Shown: piece by piece, positions 934-58,580 of the stretch | Layout of the letters: each line of letters begins with the position of its first letter | Position numbering within the stretch: position 1 is the stretch's first letter | NCBI GenBank assembly: GCA_036734945.1 | Contig: DAIMXP010000023.1 | Coordinates: 1 to 64,000 of the forward strand | Source: Chloroflexota bacterium | GTDB taxonomy: Bacteria > Chloroflexota > UBA4733 | Direction of reading: 5' to 3' | Length of the DNA stretch: 64,000 nt | Translations under genes and position numbers: made by a program | Notes under the pieces: model-generated | Seen by the model: the letters and a program-made list of their open reading frames with translations, nothing else | Database searches by the model: none | Told to the model about the DNA's origin: nothing

Positions 934-1836
934 ATGCTGCCGCCGCGGCCGTCGGGACCGCTGAAACAGGGTCAGGAGGTGGTGACGACGCGCATTGTTG
1001 TGACCGGTGGCGCCGGGCGTATCGGCGCCTGGGTGGTGAAAGAGCTGCAGGATGACTACGAGGTCGTCATCTTTGACCGCACGCGACCCCAGGAGCGACT
1101 CAAGGCCCGTATCGTCCTGGGGGATCACGCCGACCTCGGGCAACTTTGTGAGGCTTGTGCCGGCGCTGCGGCGATCCTACACCTCTCCGCCATCCCCGGA
1201 CTGGGGCCGCAGACCGATGCCGTGGTCTTCCAGACCAATGTGCTCGGTACCTATGCCATTCATCAGGCCGCCGCCCTGTTGGGCATCGACACGGTTGTCT
1301 CCACCAGTTCCCAGTCGGCCTACGGCTGGGCCTGGGGGAAGCGAGACTTCCTGCCAAAGTATCTGCCCGTTGATGAAGATCATCCCGACGAACCCGATGA
1401 GGCCTACGGCCTTTCCAAGGTGGTGGGTGAACAGATTGCCTGGTCCTTCCACCGCAAGACGGGTATGCGCACCCTTGTGCTGCGTCCGCCGCTGGTGTTG
1501 CTGCCGGGCGACTACGCGAGGGTCCTGCAGTCGTCCGCCGCGCGGCGCTGGCGCGACACGCTGTTCAGTTATGTCGATGTGCGCGACCTGGCACGAGCGT
1601 TCCGGCTGGCGCTGGAGCGGCGCGAGGTGGTCTGCGACGCCTTCAACGTGGCCGCCGACGATGCGCTGGCGGAGGAACCGCTGAGCGAACTGTTGCCGCG
1701 CCTCGAGCCGCGCCTGGCGCCACTGGCCAGCAAGTTGAGCGGCAACCAGCCGATGGTGAGCAACGCCAAGATCAAGCGACTGCTGGGCTGGACGCCGCAA
1801 CATTCCTGGCAAGACGAGGAGCCGCGCGGCGTCTAG
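934..1836 (+). CDS. NAD-dependent epimerase/dehydratase family protein
   Basis: N-terminal Rossmann motif VVTGGAGRIGAWVVKEL and a catalytic YxxxK (EAYGLSKVV). About 300 aa. Confidence 0.7.
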   Translation: MLPPRPSGPLKQGQEVVTTRIVVTGGAGRIGAWVVKELQDDYEVVIFDRTRPQERLKARIVLGDHADLGQLCEACAGAAAILHLSAIPGLGPQTDAVVFQTNVLGTYAIHQAAALLGIDTVVSTSSQSAYGWAWGKRDFLPKYLPVDEDHPDEPDEAYGLSKVVGEQIAWSFHRKTGMRTLVLRPPLVLLPGDYARVLQSSAARRWRDTLFSYVDVRDLARAFRLALERREVVCDAFNVAADDALAEEPLSELLPRLEPRLAPLASKLSGNQPMVSNAKIKRLLGWTPQHSWQDEEPRGV

Positions 1837-1858: not shown

Positions 1859-3148
1859 ATGGCTGGGCAGATCCCGAATCTGAGCGTCGAGCGTCGGCGC
1901 CTTTTCGCCCTGCTCTTCGGCATCAACACGTTGAACTATGCCGACCGCTATACCTTGCCGGCGGTGGTACCGCTGCTGGCGGTGAGCGTCGGTCTCAGCG
2001 ATACGCAGCTCGGCCTGCTGGGCACTGCCTTTCTGCTCATTTACGCCATCGCTGCCTTACCGTTGGGGTCCCTGGCCGATCGCCGTTCGCGCACCCGGAT
2101 CGTCGGCGGCGGTGTCGCTCTGTGGAGTGTCGCCACGGCGCTGACCGCGCTCTGCCGCAGCTTCCCGCAACTCTTCGCGGTACGGGCACTGCTCGGCATC
2201 GGCGAGGCGTCCTACTTCCCCGCCTCCAACAGCATGCTGGCCGACGCCTTCCCCCAGGCCCGCCGCGCGCGCGTCATGGCCTGGTGGGGTGCGGCGCTGC
2301 CCCTGGGCGTCTTTCTCGGCTACGCCGCCGGTGGCCTGATTGGTCAACGTTTCGGCTGGCAGGCGGCCTTTTTAGTGGTCGGCATCCCCGGGCTGATCCT
2401 GGCCGCCCTCGTCTGGCGCACCAGGGAGCCTCGGCGCGGGGAGAGCGAGGGCCTGCTGGCCGCCACGGTCCGGTCCGAGGGAGACCCCTTTGCCTTTCGC
2501 CTGTTGCGTATTCCGACGGTGTCCTTTGCCATCGCCTCGCAAGTATTCGCCTATTTCGTCCTGAGCGGCCTCGGCTTCTGGCTCACCACCTACCTCGTGC
2601 GCCATTACCACCTCGGCACCGGCAGCGCCGGCGTCATTGCCGGGGCACTCTTCGTGGTAGGAGGAGGCATCGGCACGGTGGCGGGCGGCTATCTGGCCGA
2701 CCACCTGTTGCCACGCCAACCGGCGGCACGCCTGCTGGTGCCGGGGGTAGGCCTGATCGCCAGCGGTGTCGCTATCGCCGCCGGACTCCTGGCGCCGACA
2801 CTGCTGCTCTTTCTGGTGATCTACACCCTGGCCGGTGCGCTGGTCTCCCTGCCCAGCGCACCGCTCTCCGCACTTTTCCAGGACGTGGTGGCGCCGGCTG
2901 TGCGGGCTAGAGTCGTCGCGCTATCGCTCCTGCTTGCCCACCTCTTCGGCGATGCCTTCTCTCCGTCTCTGATCGGCGCTGTCTCGGACCGTCTGGGCGG
3001 TGCGAACGGTGGCGGACTGGACAAGGCGCTCTGGCTGATGCCGGTAGCAGCGATCATCTCCGGGATTATCGCCCTGGCCGGGTGCCGCTACGTGGCCGCG
3101 GACCGCGCGAGGATGCTGGGAGCTCTAAGCCTCATTCCCCTTATGTAA
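1859..3148 (+). CDS. MFS transporter
   Basis: 429 aa with about 12 predicted hydrophobic helices and MFS motif A-like GSLADRRSRTRIV. A GGAGG-like RBS lies upstream. Confidence 0.7.
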   Translation: MAGQIPNLSVERRRLFALLFGINTLNYADRYTLPAVVPLLAVSVGLSDTQLGLLGTAFLLIYAIAALPLGSLADRRSRTRIVGGGVALWSVATALTALCRSFPQLFAVRALLGIGEASYFPASNSMLADAFPQARRARVMAWWGAALPLGVFLGYAAGGLIGQRFGWQAAFLVVGIPGLILAALVWRTREPRRGESEGLLAATVRSEGDPFAFRLLRIPTVSFAIASQVFAYFVLSGLGFWLTTYLVRHYHLGTGSAGVIAGALFVVGGGIGTVAGGYLADHLLPRQPAARLLVPGVGLIASGVAIAAGLLAPTLLLFLVIYTLAGALVSLPSAPLSALFQDVVAPAVRARVVALSLLLAHLFGDAFSPSLIGAVSDRLGGANGGGLDKALWLMPVAAIISGIIALAGCRYVAADRARMLGALSLIPLM

Positions 3149-3169: not shown

Positions 3170-4456
3170 ATGGAGGCTATTCGGATGCACGCAAGCGATT
3201 CCGTCACGGGCAGACAGAAGCCGGCTGCGGAAGCGACCAGCGGCGGAAAGGGCTGGCTGGGTGCGGCCGGTTGGTACAGCGTGGCCAGCCTGGGGGCCGG
3301 CTTCTTCTACGCCTTCAACAACTTCACGCTGCCCTTGGTGCTCGGCGCAATGACCTCGAACGCCACGCTGATCGGCCTGTTGAGCAGCACGCGCTCGATC
3401 GAAGGCGTCGTCATCCAGCCGACCATCGGCGCCTGGAGCGACCGCGTCTGGACGCCGCTCGGTCGGCGGCGGATTTTTATGGCGGTCGGCCTGCCGATCT
3501 CTGCGTTCTTCTTTGTCGTGGCGGCGCAGGTCCACACGCTGCCGCTGCTGGTCGCGGCGATCGTCCTCTTTTCGCTGCTGTTCAATGCGGCGATCGACCC
3601 GTATAACGCGCTGCTGGCCGACCTCTTTTCGCCGGAGCGGCGCAGCGTGGTCAACGGCCTGGCGACCGTCGTCCAGTTCGTTGGCCAGGTGGCGATGCTG
3701 CTCCTGGCGGCGCAACTCTCCGGCAACACCGTGCCGCCGGTCGTCTTCTATGTCGTCGCGGGCGGCATGCTCGTCACGGCGGCAATCACGATCAGCCGCA
3801 TCCGCGAACCGCGCCACCTGACCGCGCATGCCGCCTTACCGGACGAGCGAACTGCCGTCACCTTTCGGGAGTACGTCGGCCACCTGACCGCCAATCGCAT
3901 GGCGTTGCGCTATCTCGTCTGCTTGTTCTTCTTCAACTTCGGCGTCAACGCCATCCTCCCCTTCCTGACGCTGTTCGCCGAGCGGGTGATCCACACTGAC
4001 GCGCGGGTGGCCCAGCTGCTTTCCGTCCCCTTGCTGGTGTCGGCCGGCCTCTTTGTCCTGCCGGCCGGACTGCTGGCGGCACGCATCGGGCGGAAGCCGG
4101 TCCTGGCTGGGGGCATCCTGCTGCTGGCCGTGACCGCCCTCGGCGGGCTGGTGATCCAGACGGCCCCTCAGACTGTGCTGATCGTTATCCTCGCCGGCGT
4201 GGCCAATGCCGCCATCAGCGCCACCAACTGGCCCCTCCTCACCGAACTGATCCCGGCCGATGAGGTCGGCGTCTTTGCCGGCATCAAGACCGCCTTCGAA
4301 TCGGTAGCGATCCCGGTCTCCGCCATCGTCGCCGGGGCGCTGATCGGCCACTGGGGCTACCGCGCCATCTTCGGCGTGCTGACGTTCGGGGCAGTTATTG
4401 CCGTGCTCGTGCTGTCGACCGTCGTCCTACCCGGCGACACAGCCGACGGTGAATGA
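3170..4456 (+). CDS. MFS transporter, a candidate lysophospholipid transporter LplT analogue by position upstream of the Aas-like gene
   Basis: 428 aa and polytopic, with motif GAWSDRVWTPLGRRRIF. Adjacency to an acyl-ACP synthetase/acyltransferase gene mirrors the E. coli lplT-aas operon. Confidence 0.65.
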   Translation: MEAIRMHASDSVTGRQKPAAEATSGGKGWLGAAGWYSVASLGAGFFYAFNNFTLPLVLGAMTSNATLIGLLSSTRSIEGVVIQPTIGAWSDRVWTPLGRRRIFMAVGLPISAFFFVVAAQVHTLPLLVAAIVLFSLLFNAAIDPYNALLADLFSPERRSVVNGLATVVQFVGQVAMLLLAAQLSGNTVPPVVFYVVAGGMLVTAAITISRIREPRHLTAHAALPDERTAVTFREYVGHLTANRMALRYLVCLFFFNFGVNAILPFLTLFAERVIHTDARVAQLLSVPLLVSAGLFVLPAGLLAARIGRKPVLAGGILLLAVTALGGLVIQTAPQTVLIVILAGVANAAISATNWPLLTELIPADEVGVFAGIKTAFESVAIPVSAIVAGALIGHWGYRAIFGVLTFGAVIAVLVLSTVVLPGDTADGE

Positions 4457-4491
4457 CTTGATTGACGAACTGTTGCCAACGTCTGGTGCAG

Positions 4492-4683
4492 GGAGGCCCC
4501 CACTCTGCCTTCGGCATCTCGCCCCCAGGCGTTGGGGCGAGCCAAGGTCAAAGTATTGCGGCAATGGCACGGTGGACAGGAGGCATCCACTCTGGGTTCC
4601 AGGATCCCAGCGCCGCAACACCTCGATACTGGCTCGCCCCCACGCATGGGGGCGAGATGCCGAAGGCAGAGTGGGGGCCTCCT
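4492..4683. repeat. Long nested inverted repeat (about 52-bp arms GGAGGCCCCCACTCTGCCTTCGGCATCTCGCCCCCAGGCGTTGGGGCGAGCC, about 85-bp spacer), a palindromic MITE-like element in the 5' region of the ligase gene
   Basis: The arms are reverse complements of each other with 2 mismatches. Each arm also holds an internal hairpin CTCGCCCCC...GGGGGCGAG. Confidence 0.6.
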
Positions 4684-4751
4684 CCGGTCAGGACCGCGAG
4701 TTCGCCCACAAGCTCGTCCAACGTCGAGTCACCATCTAAGGAGACCAACCT

Positions 4752-7343
4752 ATGTTCATTCATCTCTATTCCCTTGTCCTCCGCCGTGCTACCGCGTATC
4801 CCGAGTCGGTTGCTTTCGGCGGACAGGACGGCTTGAACTGGCGCACGCTCGATGGCCGGCAGGTGCGGGATCTGACCGACATCCTGGCAAATGAACTCGC
4901 CACACGTGGTGTGACCGCAGGGGACCGTGTTGTGCTCTGGATGCCGAACCACTGGCGTACGCCGCTCTATTTCTTCGCGCTCTGGAAGCTGGGGGCGGTG
5001 GCAGTACCGTTCGACCGGGAGATGAACCCGGACGCCGCCGGTCGCATCGTCGATTCGGTAGCGCCGCGGCTGCTGATCAGCGGCTATGGCGAACGACCCG
5101 TCTGGTCGGAGCGACCCTACCGAGCGGAGTGGTGGGAACCGGGCAGCGAGCGACGCGATTCCGCTGCAGCGACGGCGAACGTCTGGACGCCGCCGAACGA
5201 GGAACTGGCCTTCATCGTCTTCACGTCGGGCACGACTGGTCAGCCGAAGGGCTGCATGATTACCCACGCCAACCTGTGTTCTCAGATCGACGCCTTTCCA
5301 GATCGCGTGCCGCTGGACACGACTTGCCGCCTGGCGAGCATTCTGCCCCTTTCCCACCTGTTCGAGATCACCGGCGGGCTCCTCTATCCCTTCTCCGTCG
5401 GCGCGGCCATCCACTACATACCCAGTCGGCGTGGACCGGACATTGTGCGGGTGCTGGCCGAGCAGAGGATCACCCACATGATCGCCGTACCCCAGTTGTT
5501 GACCTTGATGGGCCGGGGCCTGGAGCAACAACTTGCCGCCGCTATACCGGCGCCGCTCCACAAGGCCCTGAACGCCGTGGCGCCCCGTTTGCCACTGGCC
5601 TTCCGACACGCGCTGTTTACATCCGTTCACCGCAAGATCGGCGGCAAGCTGCGCCTGATCCTCTCCGGCGGCGCCGCCTTGCCGCTCGAGACGCAGCGCC
5701 TCTGGGCACGCCTCGGCGTCCGCGTGACACAAGGCTATGGCGCCAGCGAGTGCTCTCCGGTCATCGCCGTTGGCAACGCCGATGGCAGCACGCCGGTCGG
5801 CAGCGTCGGCAAACCCCTGCGCAATGTCGAGGTCAGATCGAGCCCGGACGGCGAGATTCTCGTCAAGGGTCCCAACGTGATGCGCGGCTACTGGCAGGAC
5901 CCGGAGTACACGGCCGAGGTCATGCGCGATGGCTGGTACGCTACCGGCGACCTGGCGACCCAGGACCCGGCAGGCAATCTGGTACTCACGGGTCGGGCCA
6001 AGGAATTGATCGTCCTACCGTCCGGGATGAATGTCTGGCCGCAGGACGTCGAAGACGTCTTGCGTACACAACCGGAGGTGGCGGACGCGGTGGTGCTGAC
6101 CGTGCCAACCGCCAACGGCGGCGTCAGCCTGCATGCCTACCTGCTGCCGAGCCGCCCAAGTGAGGGTGGCGCCGACCTGACCGGCATCGTGCGCCGCAGC
6201 AACAGCCACCTGGCGCAGCACCAGCGCCTGGCCGGCGCTTCCTGGTGGACCGAGCCGGACTTCCCGCGTACCGCGCTGGGAAAGGTCCGGCGTGCTGCAC
6301 TGCCCGCCCCATCGGCGCCAACAACGGGGGCACTGCCGGCTGCGCCGGTCGACGATGACCTCGTGACCCAGGCGATTGCCGGTGTTGCTCGCGTCGCCGC
6401 CGTGCGCGATGACCAGACGCTCGGCGATCTCGGCCTGGACAGCCTTGCCCTGGTCGAGTTGGCGCAAGCCCTGGAGGAAAAGACGGGCAAGGCTGTTACC
6501 GATGGCGATCTCCGGCTGGACATGACCGTGCCGGCAGTGCGCGAGCTAATCGCGCAGGCGCCAGGCAGCGAGGAAGGGTCAGGAGCGGCTGCCGCCGGCA
6601 AAGACGTACCGCTCTGGCCCTATACCTGGGGACGCGCCTTCCGGCGCCTCAGCCTGCCGCTCGACCTGCTCTACCAGGCAAGCGTGACGCGCACCATCGT
6701 CCTCGGCGCCGAAAACCTGAGCAAGCTGCCGCCCCGCCTGATCGTGGCCGGCACGCACCACGGCTTCGCCGACCTGCCGTTAGTCCGCCAGGGACTCGCC
6801 CGCACGCCGGCACGCCGGCTGGTCCGGCGGCTGGCGATCACCACCGGCGCCGAGATCTTCGGGCAGGCCGGGCCGCTGGCCTACATCGCCATGCTTGCCT
6901 TCGGTCTCTATCCGCTGGAGCAGTACGGCCACCGCGACAGCAGCCTGCGCCGCCTGGCCCCGGTGGCGGCGGCCGGGAACGCCGTGCTGATCTTCCCCCA
7001 GGGCCACCACATCAGACCGGCAGCCGAGCAAGCCGGCGACCCGGAAGCCGCCTTCCGGCCCGGCGTCGCCCACCTGGCTGCTGCCCTCGACGCGGCGGTC
7101 ATACCGTTCGGCCTCGCCGGCACCGAACGGGTGATACCGCCGTTCCTGGACGAGTACCACGGCCTGGTCATCGCCAAGATTCCGGTTGCCATCACGCGCG
7201 GTCCGCTCGCCATCGCCTTCGGCGCTCCTCTGACGCTGCAGCCCAGCGAAACGCCACAGTCCTTCACCCAACGGCTGCAGGCAACGTGCTTTGCGCTGGC
7301 GAAAGCAGCCGAGACGGAGCTGGTTGGCTGCGCCAATCGCTAG
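4752..7343 (+). CDS. Trifunctional acyl-AMP ligase / acyl carrier domain / lysophospholipid acyltransferase (Aas-like) protein, with domain order opposite to E. coli Aas
   Basis: AMP-binding motifs FIVFTSGTTGQPKGCMITHANL and GWYATGDLA. The PP-binding site is DQTLGDLGLDSLALVELAQALEEKTG. The PlsC-type HX4D is AGTHHGFADLPLV, with FPQG downstream. Strong RBS AAGGAGA. Confidence 0.75.
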   Translation: MFIHLYSLVLRRATAYPESVAFGGQDGLNWRTLDGRQVRDLTDILANELATRGVTAGDRVVLWMPNHWRTPLYFFALWKLGAVAVPFDREMNPDAAGRIVDSVAPRLLISGYGERPVWSERPYRAEWWEPGSERRDSAAATANVWTPPNEELAFIVFTSGTTGQPKGCMITHANLCSQIDAFPDRVPLDTTCRLASILPLSHLFEITGGLLYPFSVGAAIHYIPSRRGPDIVRVLAEQRITHMIAVPQLLTLMGRGLEQQLAAAIPAPLHKALNAVAPRLPLAFRHALFTSVHRKIGGKLRLILSGGAALPLETQRLWARLGVRVTQGYGASECSPVIAVGNADGSTPVGSVGKPLRNVEVRSSPDGEILVKGPNVMRGYWQDPEYTAEVMRDGWYATGDLATQDPAGNLVLTGRAKELIVLPSGMNVWPQDVEDVLRTQPEVADAVVLTVPTANGGVSLHAYLLPSRPSEGGADLTGIVRRSNSHLAQHQRLAGASWWTEPDFPRTALGKVRRAALPAPSAPTTGALPAAPVDDDLVTQAIAGVARVAAVRDDQTLGDLGLDSLALVELAQALEEKTGKAVTDGDLRLDMTVPAVRELIAQAPGSEEGSGAAAAGKDVPLWPYTWGRAFRRLSLPLDLLYQASVTRTIVLGAENLSKLPPRLIVAGTHHGFADLPLVRQGLARTPARRLVRRLAITTGAEIFGQAGPLAYIAMLAFGLYPLEQYGHRDSSLRRLAPVAAAGNAVLIFPQGHHIRPAAEQAGDPEAAFRPGVAHLAAALDAAVIPFGLAGTERVIPPFLDEYHGLVIAKIPVAITRGPLAIAFGAPLTLQPSETPQSFTQRLQATCFALAKAAETELVGCANR

Positions 7344-7385
7344 GTTGTGCATCCGATAAGGACCGGTCAGTTCGCACCGCACGCC

Positions 7386-7531
7386 CGGCGACTGAAGTCG
7401 CGGGCTACAGCGGGCGAAGTCCGCCTTCGCGGACTGGACGCTCACCCTGAGTGTCTCGTCTCAGCCCGCGAAGGTGCCGGCAGCCGCAGGCTGACCATTG
7501 GCAAGGTTAGCCCGCGACTTCAGTCGCCGGG
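7386..7531. repeat. Family-A MITE-like palindromic element (terminal inverted repeats CCGGCGACTGAAGTCGCGGGCTA / TAGCCCGCGACTTCAGTCGCCGG), copy 1
   Basis: The terminal inverted repeats and the internal GCGAAGTCCGCCTTCGCGGACT palindrome are shared with copies at 15.7, 43.6, 45.0 and 58.5 kb. It is intergenic between convergent genes. Confidence 0.7.
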
Positions 7532-7803
7532 ACCTTTGGCGCCGATGTGCGACGAACTTGCCGGATGCACTACTACGCTACCTCGCGCACGTGTGCGACC
7601 TCCCGTTCTCTCACTGCCCGAACGGCATCAGCGGGAACGGTGACAACGGCAAGCGTCAGCCCGGAAAATGCCGTGAACTCTACCTCATAACCGGCTCCTT
7701 ACTGGTGTACCATAACGACAGTACCGACATCGTCGGCTTTCAGTCCGTTTTCGGGAATGTCTTGCGTGAGCACGGCAAACTTAAGTTCCTGAATCATTCC
7801 CTT

Positions 7804-10803: not shown

Positions 10804-12567
10804 ATGACAACCACACGACGCACCTACACCTATCTGCTGGCCCTGGCCGGGCTGTTGGTGACCATCTCCGCTGCCGCCGGTCTGCTGGCACTGGTTGTCT
10901 CTACCCTCGTGCTCCACTCTAGCACGTTGCTCGGCGATGAGCGCAGCGTTGCCAGCTCCTATCTGGCCGAACTGGTCGTCGGCTTGCCGGTATGGCTCGG
11001 GCACTGGCTCGTAGCCGAGCGCAGCCTCGCCCGAAACCCGGAGGAGCGAGATGCAAGCCAGCGACGCCTTTACCTGGCCGCCGTCTTCGCCGTCAGCGCG
11101 GTGGTGGCGCTGTTCGCCCTGCACACGCTCCTGCGCGTCATCCTCACCTTGCCTGGCGCAGACGCCCGTCAACCGTTGATCGCCACCGGCATCAGCGCCG
11201 CCGCGCGTTTGCTCATATTCGGCGGAGCCTGGGCTGTCCATACCCCTGTTGACCACCAGCGCTTTGCAAGTCGGAACAGCACAGCCGGCGTGGACGATGC
11301 CCATGACCTGGCCGTGTACGTGCTGACGGGCACGGCGCTGGTCTTCTTGCTCATCGGCCTGGACCAGGCCATTCGCCAGATCGTTGGGGACCTGCTGTCC
11401 GCCGGGCAGACGGAACTCCTCGTCGTTGCCGGGCAGAACCTCTGGACTATTTGGGGCGCGATCGCCGCCTGGGTGCTGGCCGGCGGCACGATCTGGGCAC
11501 TCGTGTGGCAGTACGACCTGGCGCGCGGCGGGCGGCGACTGCTGCGGGTCATCTACCTGTACCTCGTGCTGCTTATCGCCGTGCCAACCACGATCGGGAC
11601 GGGCGTGGATGGACTCTACGAACTGCTGCGCCGCCTCTTCGGCTATCAACCGTTGGAAGCCACCTGGGCATTCCTGGGCAGCGTGCTCCCGCCCTTACTG
11701 GTCGCCGCCGGTACGTGGGCCTACCACTGGTTGACGGTGCGACAGCAGGCACGCTACGTCAGCGATGTTCCCGCGGCGCCGGCAGCGGAGGGCGAGCCAG
11801 CAGCGCCTGAGCGTGGTGTTTCCGGCATTGCCTGGCCGCGCCGCCCGGGACTGGCGCTGCTGGCCTTATTGGGGCTGGGCGTCAGTGCATCCGCCTTCGT
11901 CGCCGTACTGTGGCTCGGTCTGGACGCCCTGATTAACAGTGCCCCTTCGTTATCGGGGTCCGATTGGTGGCGCGATCGCCTGAGCGTGAGCCTCGCGGCT
12001 GGGGCGGTCGGGGCGGTTGCCTGGTTCAGTGGCTGGTGGCGCTTGCAGCGCGCGGCTACGCTGGTTCGTCAGGAGCGCGGAGCGCAGGAACGCCGGTTGC
12101 TGCTGGGGTTCATCGCCGTCGTAGGGACGCTCTTCGCCTTCGGCTTCCTGATCGCCTTACTCTGGTTCGCTTTCCGAGCGCTCCTCGGCGTGCCCGTCGG
12201 AGCGCACGGCTTGAGCACGGCGCTGAAGGAGTTCAGCGCCGCCCTCGTTGCCCTGCTACTGGCAGCCTACCACGGGCTGATCTTGCGCACCGACAGCAGC
12301 ATAGAACCCGGGCCTCCCATTCCTCAGCGGATCCGAGTACTGGTTTCCCCCGGCGCTGAGGCAATGCTGGCAGCGTTACGGCAGGATTCCAGTCTGCAGA
12401 TCGAAGTGGCCGGATGGCTGCTTGATGACGTGCGGGTAGCACAGCGCGACCTACCCGCGCTGCTTGCGCGACTCACAACCGCGGGCCCCTCGCAGGAGGG
12501 TACGCAGACGTTACTGGTGCTCGGTCCAGATGGTCCGACAATCTACCGCTACCGCAGCGAACGTTAG
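10804..12567 (+). CDS. Polytopic membrane protein of unknown function
   Basis: 587 aa with many hydrophobic segments. A GGGGAGGAAG RBS lies upstream. Confidence 0.5.
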   Translation: MTTTRRTYTYLLALAGLLVTISAAAGLLALVVSTLVLHSSTLLGDERSVASSYLAELVVGLPVWLGHWLVAERSLARNPEERDASQRRLYLAAVFAVSAVVALFALHTLLRVILTLPGADARQPLIATGISAAARLLIFGGAWAVHTPVDHQRFASRNSTAGVDDAHDLAVYVLTGTALVFLLIGLDQAIRQIVGDLLSAGQTELLVVAGQNLWTIWGAIAAWVLAGGTIWALVWQYDLARGGRRLLRVIYLYLVLLIAVPTTIGTGVDGLYELLRRLFGYQPLEATWAFLGSVLPPLLVAAGTWAYHWLTVRQQARYVSDVPAAPAAEGEPAAPERGVSGIAWPRRPGLALLALLGLGVSASAFVAVLWLGLDALINSAPSLSGSDWWRDRLSVSLAAGAVGAVAWFSGWWRLQRAATLVRQERGAQERRLLLGFIAVVGTLFAFGFLIALLWFAFRALLGVPVGAHGLSTALKEFSAALVALLLAAYHGLILRTDSSIEPGPPIPQRIRVLVSPGAEAMLAALRQDSSLQIEVAGWLLDDVRVAQRDLPALLARLTTAGPSQEGTQTLLVLGPDGPTIYRYRSER

Positions 12568-15675: not shown

Positions 15676-15849
15676 CCGGCGACTGAAGTCGCGCCTAACG
15701 CTGCGAAGCCCGCCTTCGCGGGCTGACCTAAACTGAAGCCACGATGGGATCTACATGGTGCGCGCTCGGGGCCTGCGGGTTTCATCGTGGCTTGAGTTTA
15801 GTCCGCGAAGGCGGACTTCGCTATGGTAGCCGCAACTTCAGTCGCCAGG
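15676..15849. repeat. Family-A MITE-like palindromic element, copy 2
   Basis: Terminal inverted repeats GGCGACTGAAGTCGCGCCTAAC / TAGCCGCAACTTCAGTCGCC. Internal palindromes GCGAAGCCCGCCTTCGCGGGCTGACCTA and TAGTCCGCGAAGGCGGACTTCGC. Confidence 0.7.
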
Positions 15850-33005: not shown

Positions 33006-33500
33006 CAGGGCCGCGATTGCGGGCCCAGAGGGCGCCCCCGGCCAAGTTACCGGGGCGACTGCGGTCGCTTGGGTGGGGGAGGACGGTTGGGGGCAAGGGA
33101 CGTTCGATGGGTTGGGAACAGGGCCGCGATTGCGATCGGCGGCCAAGGACGGAGGGCGACTGCGGTCGCTTGGGTGGGGACCGACGGTTGGAAAAGGCGA
33201 AAGATTGGTTCATCTTGAACAGGGCCGCGATTGCGATCGACGGCCAAGTGACGAGGGCGACTGCGGTCGCTTGGGTGGGGACCGACGGTTGCATATTCAC
33301 AGCGCCTCGGCCCCTGCTCCCCTTCACCATTCCTTGCCTCCCGCAACCGTCCTTACCCTGTCAAGCGACCGCAGTCGCCCCCGTCACTTGGCCGCCGATC
33401 GCAATCGCGGCCCTGTACTCCCCCACCCACCTTCCCGCAGCCTCCCCCAACCGCACTCCCCCGGCCAAGCGACCGCAGTCGCCGCCCTGCGATCTCCCTA
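33006..33500. repeat. Family-B REP/BIME-like cluster with three direct and two inverted copies of a roughly 50-75 bp unit (GGGCCGCGATTGCGATCGGCGGCCAAGTGACGGGGGCGACTGCGGTCGCTTGG)
   Basis: Units were read directly from the sequence. Each holds two hairpins (GGCCGC..GCGGCC and GCGAC-TGCG-GTCGC). The same unit recurs at 37.8 and 55.2 kb. Confidence 0.7.
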
Positions 33501-37780: not shown

Positions 37781-37843
37781 GAATGGCGATGGGTGCGCCG
37801 CAAAATCCTGCACAGAAAGCGAACGGTATTTAGTGGCGTGTTA

Positions 37844-37974
37844 CAGGGCCGCGATTGCGATCGGCGGCCAAGTGACGGGGGCGACTGCGGTCGCGTTGCG
37901 AACCGTCGACGGCGCATCCAAGCGACCGCAGTCGCCCCCGTCACTTGGCCGCCGATCGCAATCGCGGCCTTGTA
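37844..37974. repeat. Family-B REP-like palindromic element (unit + 27-bp spacer + inverted unit)
   Basis: Near-perfect inverted pair of CAGGGCCGCGATTGCGATCGGCGGCCAAGTGACGGGGGCGACTGCGGTCGC. Confidence 0.7.
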
Positions 37975-43625: not shown

Positions 43626-43733
43626 CCCGGCGACTGAAGTCGCGGGCTACTGAAAGCGAAGCCCACCTTCGTGGGCTGACCTAGTCCGCGTAGGCGGACT
43701 TCGCTTCGAATAGCCCGCGACTTCAGTCGCCGG
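43626..43733. repeat. Family-A MITE-like palindromic element, copy 3
   Basis: CCCGGCGACTGAAGTCGCGGGCTA...TAGCCCGCGACTTCAGTCGCCGGG with internal GCGAAGCCCACCTTCGTGGGCTGACCTAGTCCGCGTAGGCGGACTTCGC. Confidence 0.7.
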
Positions 43734-44150
43734 GCGCGGAGGCGCCGCCGTTAGCAAGCAGACCTCGCAAAACCTTGGGGGACACCCCGGTAACGCTGCC
43801 CCGTGTCGGCATCGGTTATGCGTCTGTTACCATGTGATGGACGCTCGCCTCGTCTCATCGCTGATGAACGCATACTGCAGGGTGGCGATCACTGCCTGCC
43901 GGAACGGGGCCTGTGACGGGTCCCACATCCGCGCCGGTAGCACCCCTGTTCTGTCGGTCGCACCACGACCGTTCCGCTGAGAAAGAAAATTGCCCCGGTT
44001 CCACTGTGGAGCCGGCTCGTGTGCCTATTGCCAGGGGAAGGACATTGGTTCGTGCTACAAGCGTATGAGACTCGTTCGGGCGTCGCTCAACCCGCCGTTG
44101 GGTTGGCGCCGACGAGTGAACGGTTCAGACGAGCAGACAACACGCCGTGG

Positions 44151-45016: not shown

Positions 45017-45141
45017 CTGGCGACTGGAGTCGCGCCTAACACCCACGCTACGCGCGGGTACCCGGCGAAGCCCGCCTTCGCGGGCTGACCTAGTCCGCGC
45101 AGGCGGACTTCGCCATGGTAGCCGCGACTTCAGTCGCCAGG
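45017..45141. repeat. Family-A MITE-like palindromic element, copy 4
   Basis: CTGGCGACTGGAGTCGCGCCTAAC...TAGCCGCGACTTCAGTCGCCAGG with the internal core shared with copies 2 and 3. Confidence 0.7.
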
Positions 45142-55173: not shown

Positions 55174-55296
55174 GGCCGCGACTGCGATCGGCGGCCAAGC
55201 TAACGGGGCGACTGCCGTCGCCTGCATCATCGGATGACACGGTGCGATGCGACGGCAGTCGCCCCGTTAGCTTGGCCGCCGATCGCAATCGCGGCC
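55174..55296. repeat. Family-B REP-like palindromic element (inverted pair), preceded by a conserved leader-like TGATGCAAAGCAGTGCGCAGCAAGCGAG that is also found before the 33.0-kb cluster
   Basis: GGCCGCGACTGCGATCGGCGGCCAAGCTAACGGGGCGACTGCCGTCGCC / inverse copy. Confidence 0.65.
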
Positions 55297-58459: not shown

Positions 58460-58580
58460 CTGGCGACTGAAGTCGCGGCTATACCAGGCGAAGTCCGCCT
58501 GCGCGGACTCGTTTCCAGCCCGCGAAGGGCCCAGAGGGCACCCACTTCGCTCGCTTTTAGGCGCGACTTTAGTCGCCGAC
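58460..58580. repeat. Family-A MITE-like palindromic element, copy 5
   Basis: CTGGCGACTGAAGTCGCGGCTATA...GCGCGACTTTAGTCGCCGACC with internal GCGAAGTCCGCCTGCGCGGACT. Confidence 0.65.

Follow-up and report, generated by a model that had tools for sequence, protein, structure and literature searches.

The window analysed here, a stretch of 64,000 nucleotides from a Chloroflexota genome, encodes a single polypeptide in which an adenylating domain, an acyl carrier domain and an acyltransferase domain follow one another. It is tentatively proposed, with slightly less than even confidence, that this fusion protein belongs with the ElbD-like enzymes that have no reductase and works as a self-contained acyltransferase, one that activates, tethers and transfers the acyl group and would apply Aas-type chemistry to a lyso-lipid or other membrane-lipid acceptor. 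As predicted from its sequence, its most likely function is the ATP-dependent acylation of such an acceptor with free fatty acid. The two open reading frames singled out by a preceding sequence-only reading, MFS-B and the fusion gene, were recovered at the same positions, and the second MFS gene that it had placed upstream (MFS-A) is real.

934-1836, forward strand: SDR/epimerase of the NAD-dependent epimerase family, two genes upstream of the fusion gene (Pfam)
1859-3148, forward strand: MFS-A (Pfam)
3170-4456, forward strand: MFS-B, 428 aa, sucrose/GPH(MFS_2)-like (open reading frame; Pfam MFS_1/MFS_2)
4492-4682, no strand assigned: 191-nt palindromic element with 85-nt arms in the spacer between MFS-B and the fusion gene (RNA fold z = -11)
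4752-7343, forward strand: tri-domain fusion gene, 863 aa (open reading frame; Pfam domains)
7344-7573, no strand assigned: nested palindromic REP-like element directly after the fusion stop codon, marking the downstream edge of an indel relative to the related locus L154

An AAGGAG ribosome-binding site (4738-4743) stands 8 nt before the ATG of the fusion gene; for MFS-B, the form of 423 aa found in databases corresponds to an alternative start at 3185. The SDR, MFS-A and MFS-B genes are tightly packed, with gaps of 22 and 21 nt, and the SDR and MFS-A genes, which do not recur near other fusion genes, are context genes that probably form a unit separate from the fusion gene. The claim that an MFS gene 'directly' precedes the fusion gene holds for its upstream position but not for the adverb, since 295 bp that include the 191-nt palindrome lie between the two. 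The features recognised within the fusion gene are as follows.

4782-6284, forward strand: ANL adenylation domain of the FadD13/FACS-like type (PF00501; N-subdomain residues 11-381, C-subdomain 433-511)
6360-6551, forward strand: acyl carrier domain, residues 537-600 (PF00550, 38 bits against a cut-off of 20.8; Ser564 codon at 6441-6443)
6606-6683, forward strand: aromatic/basic segment PLWPYTWGR..LY immediately N-terminal to the acyltransferase core (conservation)
6708-7112, forward strand: PlsC/LPLAT-family acyltransferase domain, residues 653-787 (PF01553, 28.7 bits against a cut-off of 23)
6756-6773, forward strand: HX4D motif of the acyltransferase (H669..D674, within THHGFAD)
6993-7004, forward strand: FPQG variant of block III, residues 748-751

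The order acyl-AMP ligase, carrier, acyltransferase had been read from the letters and is borne out both by Pfam and by the conserved residues of the three catalytic centres, among which are the quoted DSL serine, HHGFAD and FPQG motifs. Conservation was judged from an alignment of the fusion protein with 39 Chloroflexota homologues at 57-64% identity. In the adenylation domain, where AMP-binding (PF00501, residues 11-381) scores 230 bits and AMP-binding_C (residues 433-511) 19.4 bits, under its cut-off of 24.5, the A3 P-loop TSGTTGQPKG with its Lys166 and the A10 Lys511 are invariant in the 40 sequences. This domain finds FadD13 among PDB structures (E 2e-37) and is closer to FadD13-type acyl-CoA synthetases than to FAALs. 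The carrier domain bears the motif LGLDSL, with D563 and S564 invariant in 40/40 sequences, and is of the ACP type rather than the PCP type, AcpM/AcpP-type ACPs being closest. A failed PP-binding match or a variable central serine had been named beforehand as counting against the sequence-only reading; the HMM matches and the serine does not vary. The acyltransferase domain has a GPAT/PlsC/tafazzin fold, and H669, D674, F748, Q750 and G751 are invariant in the same alignment. A full-length AlphaFold model has a mean pLDDT of 83.4 and falls below 50 only between Pfam domains, at residues 529-534 and 608-616.

These parts suggest a reaction in three steps. The ANL domain would adenylate a free fatty acid with ATP, a substrate suggested by its FadD-like similarity; the acyl group would then be loaded in cis onto the ACP-like domain, by way of a phosphopantetheine arm at Ser564; and the GPAT/PlsC-fold domain, through the H669/D674 dyad, would move the acyl chain to a membrane-lipid hydroxyl. 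Overall, the enzyme would return free fatty acid to membrane lipids by re-acylating or remodelling them. Since no stretch of it clearly qualifies as transmembrane (its highest Kyte-Doolittle mean over 19 residues is 1.65), the protein probably acts as a peripheral enzyme on the cytoplasmic side of the membrane. In this it resembles Aas, which is peripheral and has no transmembrane segment (PMC11416262), and the likeness suggests a similar location. The segment before the acyltransferase core, in which W622, P623, Y624, T625, W626, G627 and R628 are invariant or nearly invariant, is amphipathic and possibly serves as an interfacial membrane anchor.

The closest relative of the whole protein was found among enzymes of ether-lipid biosynthesis. 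Myxococcus xanthus ElbD is a multidomain FAR-ACS-ACP-AGPAT enzyme of that pathway (Lorenzen et al. 2014, as reviewed in PMC9131029), and the comparison was made with P0367, a protein of the same architecture as ElbD (NAD_binding_4, Sterile, AMP-binding, PP-binding and Acyltransferase, i.e. FAR-ACS-ACP-AT), and not with the ElbD sequence itself. Residues 150-796 of the fusion align with P0367 in one collinear HSP (31% identity over 705 columns, E 3e-73), so that the ACS-ACP-acyltransferase core is in the same order and homologous as a unit. ElbD carries an N-terminal fatty-acyl reductase (FAR/NAD_binding_4), whereas in the fusion AMP-binding starts at residue 11; the agreement of the N-terminus with those of homologues and the good ribosome-binding site indicate that the FAR domain is truly missing. 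By collinear alignment, then, the whole-protein relative is the ElbD type minus its reductase domain. A reductase-less tri-domain design is already known in the literature (PMC9131029; PMC8460268; PMC12820801): most ElbD-like proteins from other phyla are without the FAR domain (PMC9131029), and surveys have described PKS/NRPS-independent fusions of unassigned function that, like the present protein, join a FAAL-like or adenylation domain to an LPLAT/AGPAT-like (lysophospholipid-acyltransferase-like) domain (PMC8460268; PMC12820801). The Chloroflexota MFS pairing described below is absent from the accounts given in these surveys. For ElbD, ACS and ACP activities have been demonstrated in vitro and attempts to show acyltransferase activity were unsuccessful (PMC9131029); members of the reductase-less family are noted in the literature with no demonstrated acceptor for any.

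The ElbD type being the best match over the whole protein, the fusion could serve the de novo synthesis of a specialised membrane lipid and not lyso-lipid repair; it would then join a dedicated fatty acid to glycerol-3-phosphate, DHAP or some other backbone, for instance a long-chain diol or an inositol-lipid precursor, and the MFS protein would be irrelevant or an exporter of the product. Such a role would agree with the occurrence of the same tri-domain architecture in Acidobacteriota, Planctomycetota, Bacteroidales and Nitrosomonas, where a HAD (ElbB-like) gene adjoins one of the tri-domain genes. It would also agree with the epimerase-family gene two genes upstream, as elbA and elbE belong to the same family (PMC9131029), and with a myo-inositol-1-phosphate synthase gene that lies convergent downstream at 8 loci of one Chloroflexota subclade. 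Nevertheless, we regard it as unlikely, if by no means negligible. The fusion is without a FAR domain and has no AGPS in its surroundings; L154 keeps the epimerase gene but not the fusion gene, and the epimerase gene does not recur near other fusion genes; the linkage to inositol synthase is seen only among closely related contigs, where simple synteny may account for it; and blocks II and III lack the Arg that is tied to phosphate-monoester acceptors. Moreover, the elb operon has the HAD protein ElbB, ElbC and the epimerase-family ElbE as partners, whereas the fusion locus has no elbB/C/E-type operon, its neighbour being often an MFS gene, and no HAD neighbour was seen among the selected flanking ORFs scanned.

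The preferred reading, a self-loading acyltransferase of membrane lipids, draws its chemistry from E. coli Aas, the 2-acyl-GPE acyltransferase/acyl-ACP synthetase, which performs the three steps proposed here: fatty acid with ATP, acyl-ACP, and transfer to a lipid hydroxyl. In Aas the transferase is N-terminal, the synthetase follows and the ACP (AcpP) is supplied in trans, whereas the fusion has the carrier in cis and the order synthetase, ACP, transferase, so that the inverted arrangement with a built-in carrier noticed in the sequence-only reading is confirmed by Pfam. The idea that the fusion is a rearranged Aas orthologue was rejected, since the collinear relative is of the ElbD type; the adenylation domain shares 29% identity with its counterpart in Aas, and the protein scores 136 and 125 bits with the Aas equivalogs NF006386 and NF005291 (cut-offs 1221 and 1349), the best-scoring stretch lying in the synthetase part of both models. 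The transferase domain, however, matches that of E. coli Aas in a profile comparison (hhalign 92%, E 5.8e-7, 129 columns spanning blocks I-IV) far better than E. coli PlsC (0.7%), a contrast between two reference sequences only.

With the PlsC/GPAT acyltransferases at large (PF01553; structures 5kym and 1iuq) this domain has the fold and the HX4D dyad in common, but it is very divergent, lacks the block II and III Arg and receives its acyl donor in cis. The absence of the PlsC-type Arg from block II (AFGLYPL in Chloroflexota) is common to Aas and the other tri-domain proteins. The change in block III from FPEGxR to FPQGxH, in which Glu becomes Gln and Arg is gone, is specific to the Chloroflexota clade: ElbD-type proteins have FPEGTR, and a motif alignment indicates that the tri-domain proteins of other phyla keep FPEGxR. 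The missing block II Arg, the FPQGxH variant and the Aas-type transferase profile together make a lyso-lipid whose phosphate is blocked or missing, such as a lyso-phospholipid or lyso-glycolipid, the more likely acceptor than glycerol-3-phosphate or lysophosphatidic acid, the reading of substrate from blocks II and III resting on the GPAT/LPAAT mutagenesis literature.

The MFS gene alongside the fusion gene in the window recalls the E. coli LplT/Aas system; here it is sucrose/GPH-like and not LplT. Neither MFS-A nor MFS-B was accepted as LplT: MFS-B and the MFS-B-family proteins adjoining fusion genes at other loci gave no match to the LplT equivalog NF008397, for which the E. coli LplT control scored 579 bits, MFS-A had none among its 25 listed families, and BLASTP to LplT was weak (E 0.002, out of register, for MFS-B and E 0.007 for MFS-A). 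The description of the locus as LplT/Aas-like therefore stands in part, for the transferase profile and the recurrent MFS neighbour, and fails for the identity of the MFS protein and for Aas orthology. MFS-A is an anion-type MFS.

The MFS-B family is not MFSD2A- or LtaA-like; its nearest profile matches are GlcP, SLC45A4 and the sucrose transporter SUC1, it carries the motif ...SDR....GRRR.F, which we take to be typical of sucrose transporters, and its JGI labels read 'maltose/maltooligosaccharide transporter' and 'melibiose symporter-like', labels that are automatic. One might thus suppose that the fusion esterifies a sugar or polyol while the MFS protein imports a glycoside or exports the acylated product, all the more so as the window's MFS-B has an SDR and an anion-type MFS beside it, a grouping of the kind found in carbohydrate clusters, and block III of the acyltransferase is non-canonical. 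This is improbable, given that the transferase profile matches that of Aas, that the tri-domain homologues in other phyla lack an MFS-B-type neighbour, and that the characterised PlsC/GPAT-fold enzymes, to our knowledge, use lipid or glycerol-phosphate-type acceptors.

Whether the MFS and fusion genes form a locus at all is a separate question. MFS-B-family genes are the most frequent neighbours of fusion genes in Chloroflexota, upstream or downstream on the same strand: 17 matches fall in the 143 kb scanned that lie no more than 2 kb from a fusion gene, against 1 in 196 kb further out. Of the informative Chloroflexota loci, about 40% show the adjacency, and in two MFS clades every member lies next to a fusion gene. 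The adjacency is kept in a 91-92%-identical relative and absent in L154 (about 75% identical in DNA), where the order SDR-MFS-A-MFS-B-aminotransferase persists without the fusion gene. The link is facultative, and MFS-B is a candidate partner of the fusion. The fusion gene and the SDR-MFS-A-MFS-B block may instead be independent units, joined by insertion or deletion in a palindrome-rich spacer, so that their pairing in the window would carry no information on function, a view that is compatible with any enzyme function and to which we give a substantial probability, though one short of a half. It is favoured by L154, which is colinear on both sides and lacks window positions 4457-7574; by REP-like elements that lie on either side of the fusion gene and vary among near relatives; and by the grouping of the window's MFS-B with homologues not beside fusion genes, two of them being coupled with genes of the CbiA type. 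Against it are the strong enrichment of the family beside Chloroflexota fusion genes in several independent arrangements and the adjacency kept in the close relative, and a deletion in the L154 lineage would explain the indel equally well. The spacer element at 4492-4682 is replaced by a different palindrome in the 91%-identical relative and is not a conserved regulator.

For the self-loading acyltransferase, the MFS protein may, by analogy with LplT, which flips lyso-PE, lyso-PG or lyso-cardiolipin, deliver or flip the acceptor, a coupling that is uncertain in the window's lineage; the packing of MFS-B with MFS-A and the SDR, and the 295 bp with a variable palindrome before the fusion gene, count against it. 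The full analogy, in which an MFS protein resembling sucrose transporters would serve as the flippase of a lyso-lipid, perhaps a lyso-glycolipid, for re-acylation with free fatty acid by a single polypeptide through its own carrier arm, in convergence with LplT/Aas, is rather doubtful. Chloroflexota are mostly single-membrane bacteria and stand outside the known LplT/Aas range. That system has been reported only from Gram-negative bacteria (PMC11416262). If the analogy were true, Chloroflexota would have independently assembled a lyso-lipid repair module, convergent with LplT/Aas, on an ElbD-like scaffold. Two further observations on the surroundings of these genes favour the proposed self-loading acyltransferase: three loci have PspA/IM30 membrane-stress genes close by, and in a Planctomycetota genome an unrelated MFS gene overlaps the tri-domain gene.

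The fusion gene follows, on the same strand, a gene for an epimerase-family SDR and two transporter genes, MFS-A and MFS-B, and is convergent with downstream genes for an aminotransferase and a creatininase, in a region of 64-70% GC.

Genes around the fusion gene (window coordinates)
934-1836, plus strand: NAD-dependent epimerase-family SDR
1859-3148, plus strand: MFS-A
3170-4456, plus strand: MFS-B
4752-7343, plus strand: fusion ORF, 863 aa
7804-9111, minus strand: class-III aminotransferase

The SDR, MFS-A and MFS-B genes are separated by gaps of only 21-22 nt, whereas a spacer of 295 bp lies between MFS-B and the fusion gene, whose ATG is preceded by AAGGAG at a distance of 8 nt.

Domains of the fusion protein (Pfam)
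residues 11-381: AMP-binding, 230 bits
residues 433-511: AMP-binding_C, under cut-off
residues 537-600: PP-binding, 38 bits (cut-off 20.8)
residues 653-787: Acyltransferase (PF01553), 28.7 bits (cut-off 23)

The coordinates, domain order and motifs given by the sequence-only reading agree with the ORFs, the Pfam matches and the 863-aa sequence, and the carrier domain that it placed between ligase and acyltransferase is borne out both by the PP-binding match and by an alignment of the window protein with 39 of its best homologues (57-64% identity), in which Ser564 is invariant. The same alignment shows invariance of the neighbouring Asp563, of the A3 loop, Lys166 and the A10 Lys511 in the adenylation domain, and of His669 and Asp674 (HX4D) together with Phe748, Gln750 and Gly751 (FPQG) in the transferase. 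All three catalytic domains are intact and conserved, and a full-length AlphaFold2 model built from the homologue alignment is confident (mean pLDDT 83.4). The adenylation domain is FACS-like, being neither FAAL-like nor Aas-specific; PDB and NCBIfam searches liken the carrier to the fatty-acid-synthase-type ACPs AcpM and AcpP; and the transferase has the GPAT/PlsC fold. No clear transmembrane segment is predicted in the fusion protein, and an invariant aromatic and basic stretch just before the transferase core, PLWPYTWGR, could be an interfacial membrane anchor.

The exact protein is present in public collections under the sole label 'long-chain acyl-CoA synthetase', and a 91%-identical fragment from a Chloroflexota MAG bears the label 'non-ribosomal peptide synthetase, partial'. 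When 5.8 billion proteins were searched, more than 5000 matched; the best 120 are mostly 850-910 aa long, mostly carry precomputed AMP-binding, PP-binding and Acyltransferase matches and, where the source is named, come almost entirely from Chloroflexota MAGs, one of them a Dehalococcoidia. When genome contigs were scanned with the full-length alignment, the generic TSGTTGxPKG motif dominated the outcome and most matches were ordinary acyl-CoA ligases, yet tri-domain homologues in other phyla also came to light; metagenomes were searched with an alignment of the carrier and acyltransferase half (ACP-AT) alone. An exhaustive search with the ACP-AT profile gave 51 cluster representatives at E <= 1e-30, 318 at <= 1e-10 and 1607 at <= 1e-3, many of them 820-860 aa long and matching at the C-terminus. 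Pfam confirmed the three-domain layout in such representatives, and found it at about 30% identity in genomes or MAGs assigned to Acidobacteriota, Planctomycetota, Bacteroidales and Nitrosomonas and in one Methanosarcinales MAG. In this last case a complete gene (L004, 1377-3812) lies on a 6-kb contig binned to the archaeon; either horizontal transfer or misbinning could account for this. Another protein from the ACP-AT search, P0265 (969 aa), combines the C-terminal part of an adenylation domain, a PP-binding domain, a luciferase-like monooxygenase and an acyltransferase with a strong match (247 bits) to the Chloroflexota ACP-AT profile.

The closest described design is that of ElbD, the Myxococcus ether-lipid enzyme. 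A homologue of 1542 aa, P0367, has by Pfam a fatty-acyl reductase (NAD_binding_4/Sterile) followed by AMP-binding, PP-binding and Acyltransferase domains, the architecture described for ElbD (PMC9131029), and served as a same-architecture stand-in for M. xanthus ElbD. Residues 150-796 of the fusion protein align with P0367 at 31% identity (E 3e-73), in one collinear HSP that covers all three shared domains; the ElbD type thus shares a collinear core with the fusion protein but has a reductase domain that the latter lacks, for which reason the fusion is not a full ElbD. ElbD-like proteins outside the myxobacteria mostly lack the reductase and have seen little or no lipid analysis, and for ElbD itself the ACS and ACP activities, but not the acyltransferase activity, were demonstrated in vitro (PMC9131029). 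Surveys of FAALs also cite adenylation-LPLAT fusions, an architecture for which they offer no explanation (PMC8460268, PMC12820801). The in-cis carrier and inverted domain order singled out by the sequence-only reading are therefore real, but the design was already on record. Literature searches yielded no characterised A-ACP-PlsC enzyme besides ElbD and nothing on this Chloroflexota tri-domain family; as far as it was searched, the Chloroflexota clade, its FPQGxH motif and its MFS pairing are not on record.

E. coli Aas, by comparison, aligns with the fusion protein in the adenylation domain only (29% over 296 columns). At the level of profiles, the transferase shows an affinity to the transferase domain of Aas: the ACP-AT profile matches the latter with an hhalign probability of 92% (E 5.8e-7, 129 columns) and E. 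coli PlsC with one of 0.7%. In the motif alignment, block II reads AFGLYPL in the Chloroflexota clade, FIDFVPL in Aas and F..FPLPQ in other tri-domain proteins, all of which miss the Arg present in the PlsC-type FI.R; block III reads FPQGxH in the Chloroflexota clade and FPEG.R in Aas, PlsC and the tri-domain proteins of other phyla. The Arg and Glu positions of blocks II and III are known from GPAT and LPAAT mutagenesis to contact the glycerol-phosphate acceptor, and because of this the motifs weakly suggest that the acceptor of the fusion carries no free phosphate monoester.

We propose, at a little short of an even chance, that the fusion protein uses ATP to salvage free fatty acid into a lyso-type membrane lipid. 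A free fatty acid would be activated, the acyl group self-loaded onto Ser564 and then transferred at the membrane surface to a lipid hydroxyl; the acceptor would be a lyso-lipid rather than glycerol-phosphate, and an MFS transporter would deliver it. The predicted enzyme is Aas-like in its work and ElbD-like in its scaffold. That it instead makes a specialised lipid de novo, as an ElbD-like enzyme, is a reading that has the collinear core on its side and the missing reductase against it, and we regard it as unlikely. Were lyso-lipid re-acylation correct, it would provide fatty-acid salvage and membrane mending without LplT/Aas in a large and poorly cultured phylum, a first function for the widespread reductase-less ElbD-like proteins, and a compact single-protein tool for turning free fatty acid and ATP into esterified lipid. 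The fusion is a well-supported domain architecture and a useful target for biochemistry, and is not surprising in kind.

The transporter was originally read as an LplT-type flippase, and this did not hold. MFS-B matches Pfam MFS_1 and MFS_2, but neither it nor related fusion-adjacent MFS proteins match the LplT equivalog model, on which E. coli LplT scores 579 bits, and MFS-A has no LplT equivalog match among the families listed. BLASTP of MFS-A and MFS-B against LplT gives generic similarity only, out of register for MFS-B. The identification of MFS-B as LplT was rejected on these grounds, and an MFSD2A- or LtaA-like identity was unsupported in a PDB profile search. As the defining tests fail, the system belongs to neither the LplT nor the Aas family. 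Among solved structures, the MFS-B family profile (23 sequences) is closest to GlcP, SLC45A4 and the plant sucrose transporter SUC1, and automatic labels for the family include 'maltose/maltooligosaccharide transporter' and 'melibiose symporter-like'; MFS-B is, by these profile matches, a predicted sucrose/GPH-like MFS. The possibility that the fusion acylates a sugar or glycoside has to be considered between these resemblances on the one side and the Aas-like affinity of the transferase on the other, and appears quite improbable. If such a sugar-type MFS acted as a lipid flippase, it would be a bacterial addition to the few lipid-transporting members of its group.

Palindromic elements bracket the fusion gene at 4492-4682 and 7344-7573. 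The first, a hairpin of 191 nt that is single-copy in the window, has 85-nt arms that are 84% complementary and an RNA fold z of -11, and its only Rfam match is a sub-threshold one to the MIR1437 hairpin-precursor model (MITE-like miRNA precursor). A different palindrome occupies the same spot in a 91%-identical relative (L159/L160); thus the hairpin is a mobile repeat and not a regulator, and a riboswitch or leader was rejected on the same observations. The second belongs to a dispersed REP-like family whose core, GGCGACTGNNGTCGC, has 17 matches in the 64-kb window against 0.03 expected, with nested copies clustered at 33.0-33.5 kb.

Intergenic REP-like palindromes in the window
7344-7573
15678-15846
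33039-33483
37842-37974
43626-43734
45019-45138
55174-55296
58462-58476

An Rfam CRISPR-DR28 match at 45091-45114 (36.8 bits, gathering threshold 35) falls inside one of these palindromes, in a 150-bp spacer, and is a false positive because there is no array.

The neighbours of fusion genes were compared over 66 metagenome loci found with the ACP-AT-specific query, plus three taken from long contigs. The neighbour that recurs most often is an MFS-B homologue (29-48% identity), present at 15 loci. It directly precedes the fusion gene, in the same orientation, at 7 of the 18 loci that are informative upstream, directly follows it at 7 of the 42 that are informative downstream, and adjoins it on one side or the other at 5 of the 13 informative on both; in the 143 kb scanned within 2 kb of fusion genes there are 17 MFS-B-family matches, and in the 196 kb farther out there is one. 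A neighbour-joining tree of the transporters has two wholly fusion-adjacent clades, an 'upstream type' and a 'downstream type', and one mixed clade. An independent pairing occurs beyond the Chloroflexota, in a Planctomycetota MAG whose tri-domain gene is overlapped over 31 nt at its 3' end by a different, ATG22-like MFS gene (L011, 8384-9838). The recurrence, the clades and this overlap are good evidence that tri-domain enzymes and MFS transporters are, in general, functionally tied.

For the window itself we put a functional coupling of MFS-B with the fusion at about an even chance. Against it stands the close packing of MFS-B with MFS-A and the SDR, in contrast to the 295-bp spacer before the fusion gene. 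The window's MFS-B also clusters with homologues that do not adjoin fusion genes, adjacency being absent in all seven of those examined (48-59% identity), and two of the seven are coupled to CbiA-type genes. In L153 (4562-7269) and the P0187 contig the MFS-B homologue (48-49% identity) overlaps by 4 nt a CbiA/GATase_3 gene resembling cobyrinate-diamide synthase, with a Peripla_BP_2 binding protein adjoining, which is a different conserved context for the family. Also against the tie, in the related contig L154 (DNA 75-81% identical) adh_short, SDR, MFS-A, MFS-B and the minus-strand aminotransferase are ordered as in the window, and 71 bp (4676-4746) correspond to window 4457-7574, so that the fusion gene and both flanking palindromes are missing. 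Measured against L154, the fusion gene is thus an indel, and an insertion in the window fits the data as does a loss in the lineage of L154. A 91-92%-identical relative retains MFS-B next to the fusion gene. That the juxtaposition in the window arose by chance, which would be compatible with any of the enzyme functions considered, is a serious possibility that we hold at somewhat less than even. Neither MFS-A nor the SDR recurs beside fusion genes, and the two probably make up a unit of their own, perhaps a carbohydrate-related one; a reading of the SDR as an ElbE analogue is not supported, since it is kept without the fusion gene in L154 and does not recur near fusion genes.

Other recurrent neighbours hint at a membrane-lipid context and do not settle the acceptor. 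Eight loci from a single Chloroflexota subclade (L107, L111, L114, L124, L126, L127, L131, L148) have a myo-inositol-1-phosphate synthase gene downstream of the fusion gene and convergent with it, often alongside a WYL-domain regulator, itself found in six loci; an inositol-lipid tie or plain synteny is possible. Paired genes for PspA/IM30, which are membrane-stress genes, occur a few kb from the fusion gene in three loci (L001 12486-15384, L103 13-651, L105 3349-6117), and in other phyla a HAD hydrolase gene (Terriglobia) and one for a haemolysin-III/PAQR protein (Bacteroidales) are among the neighbours.

Elsewhere in the window, the left edge carries an ORF (28-666) with a RES domain, the toxin component in toxin-antitoxin pairs of the RES-Xre type; a strong hairpin resembling a terminator lies on the minus strand at 741-770, and a 587-aa protein with three DUF5671 repeats is encoded at 10804-12567.
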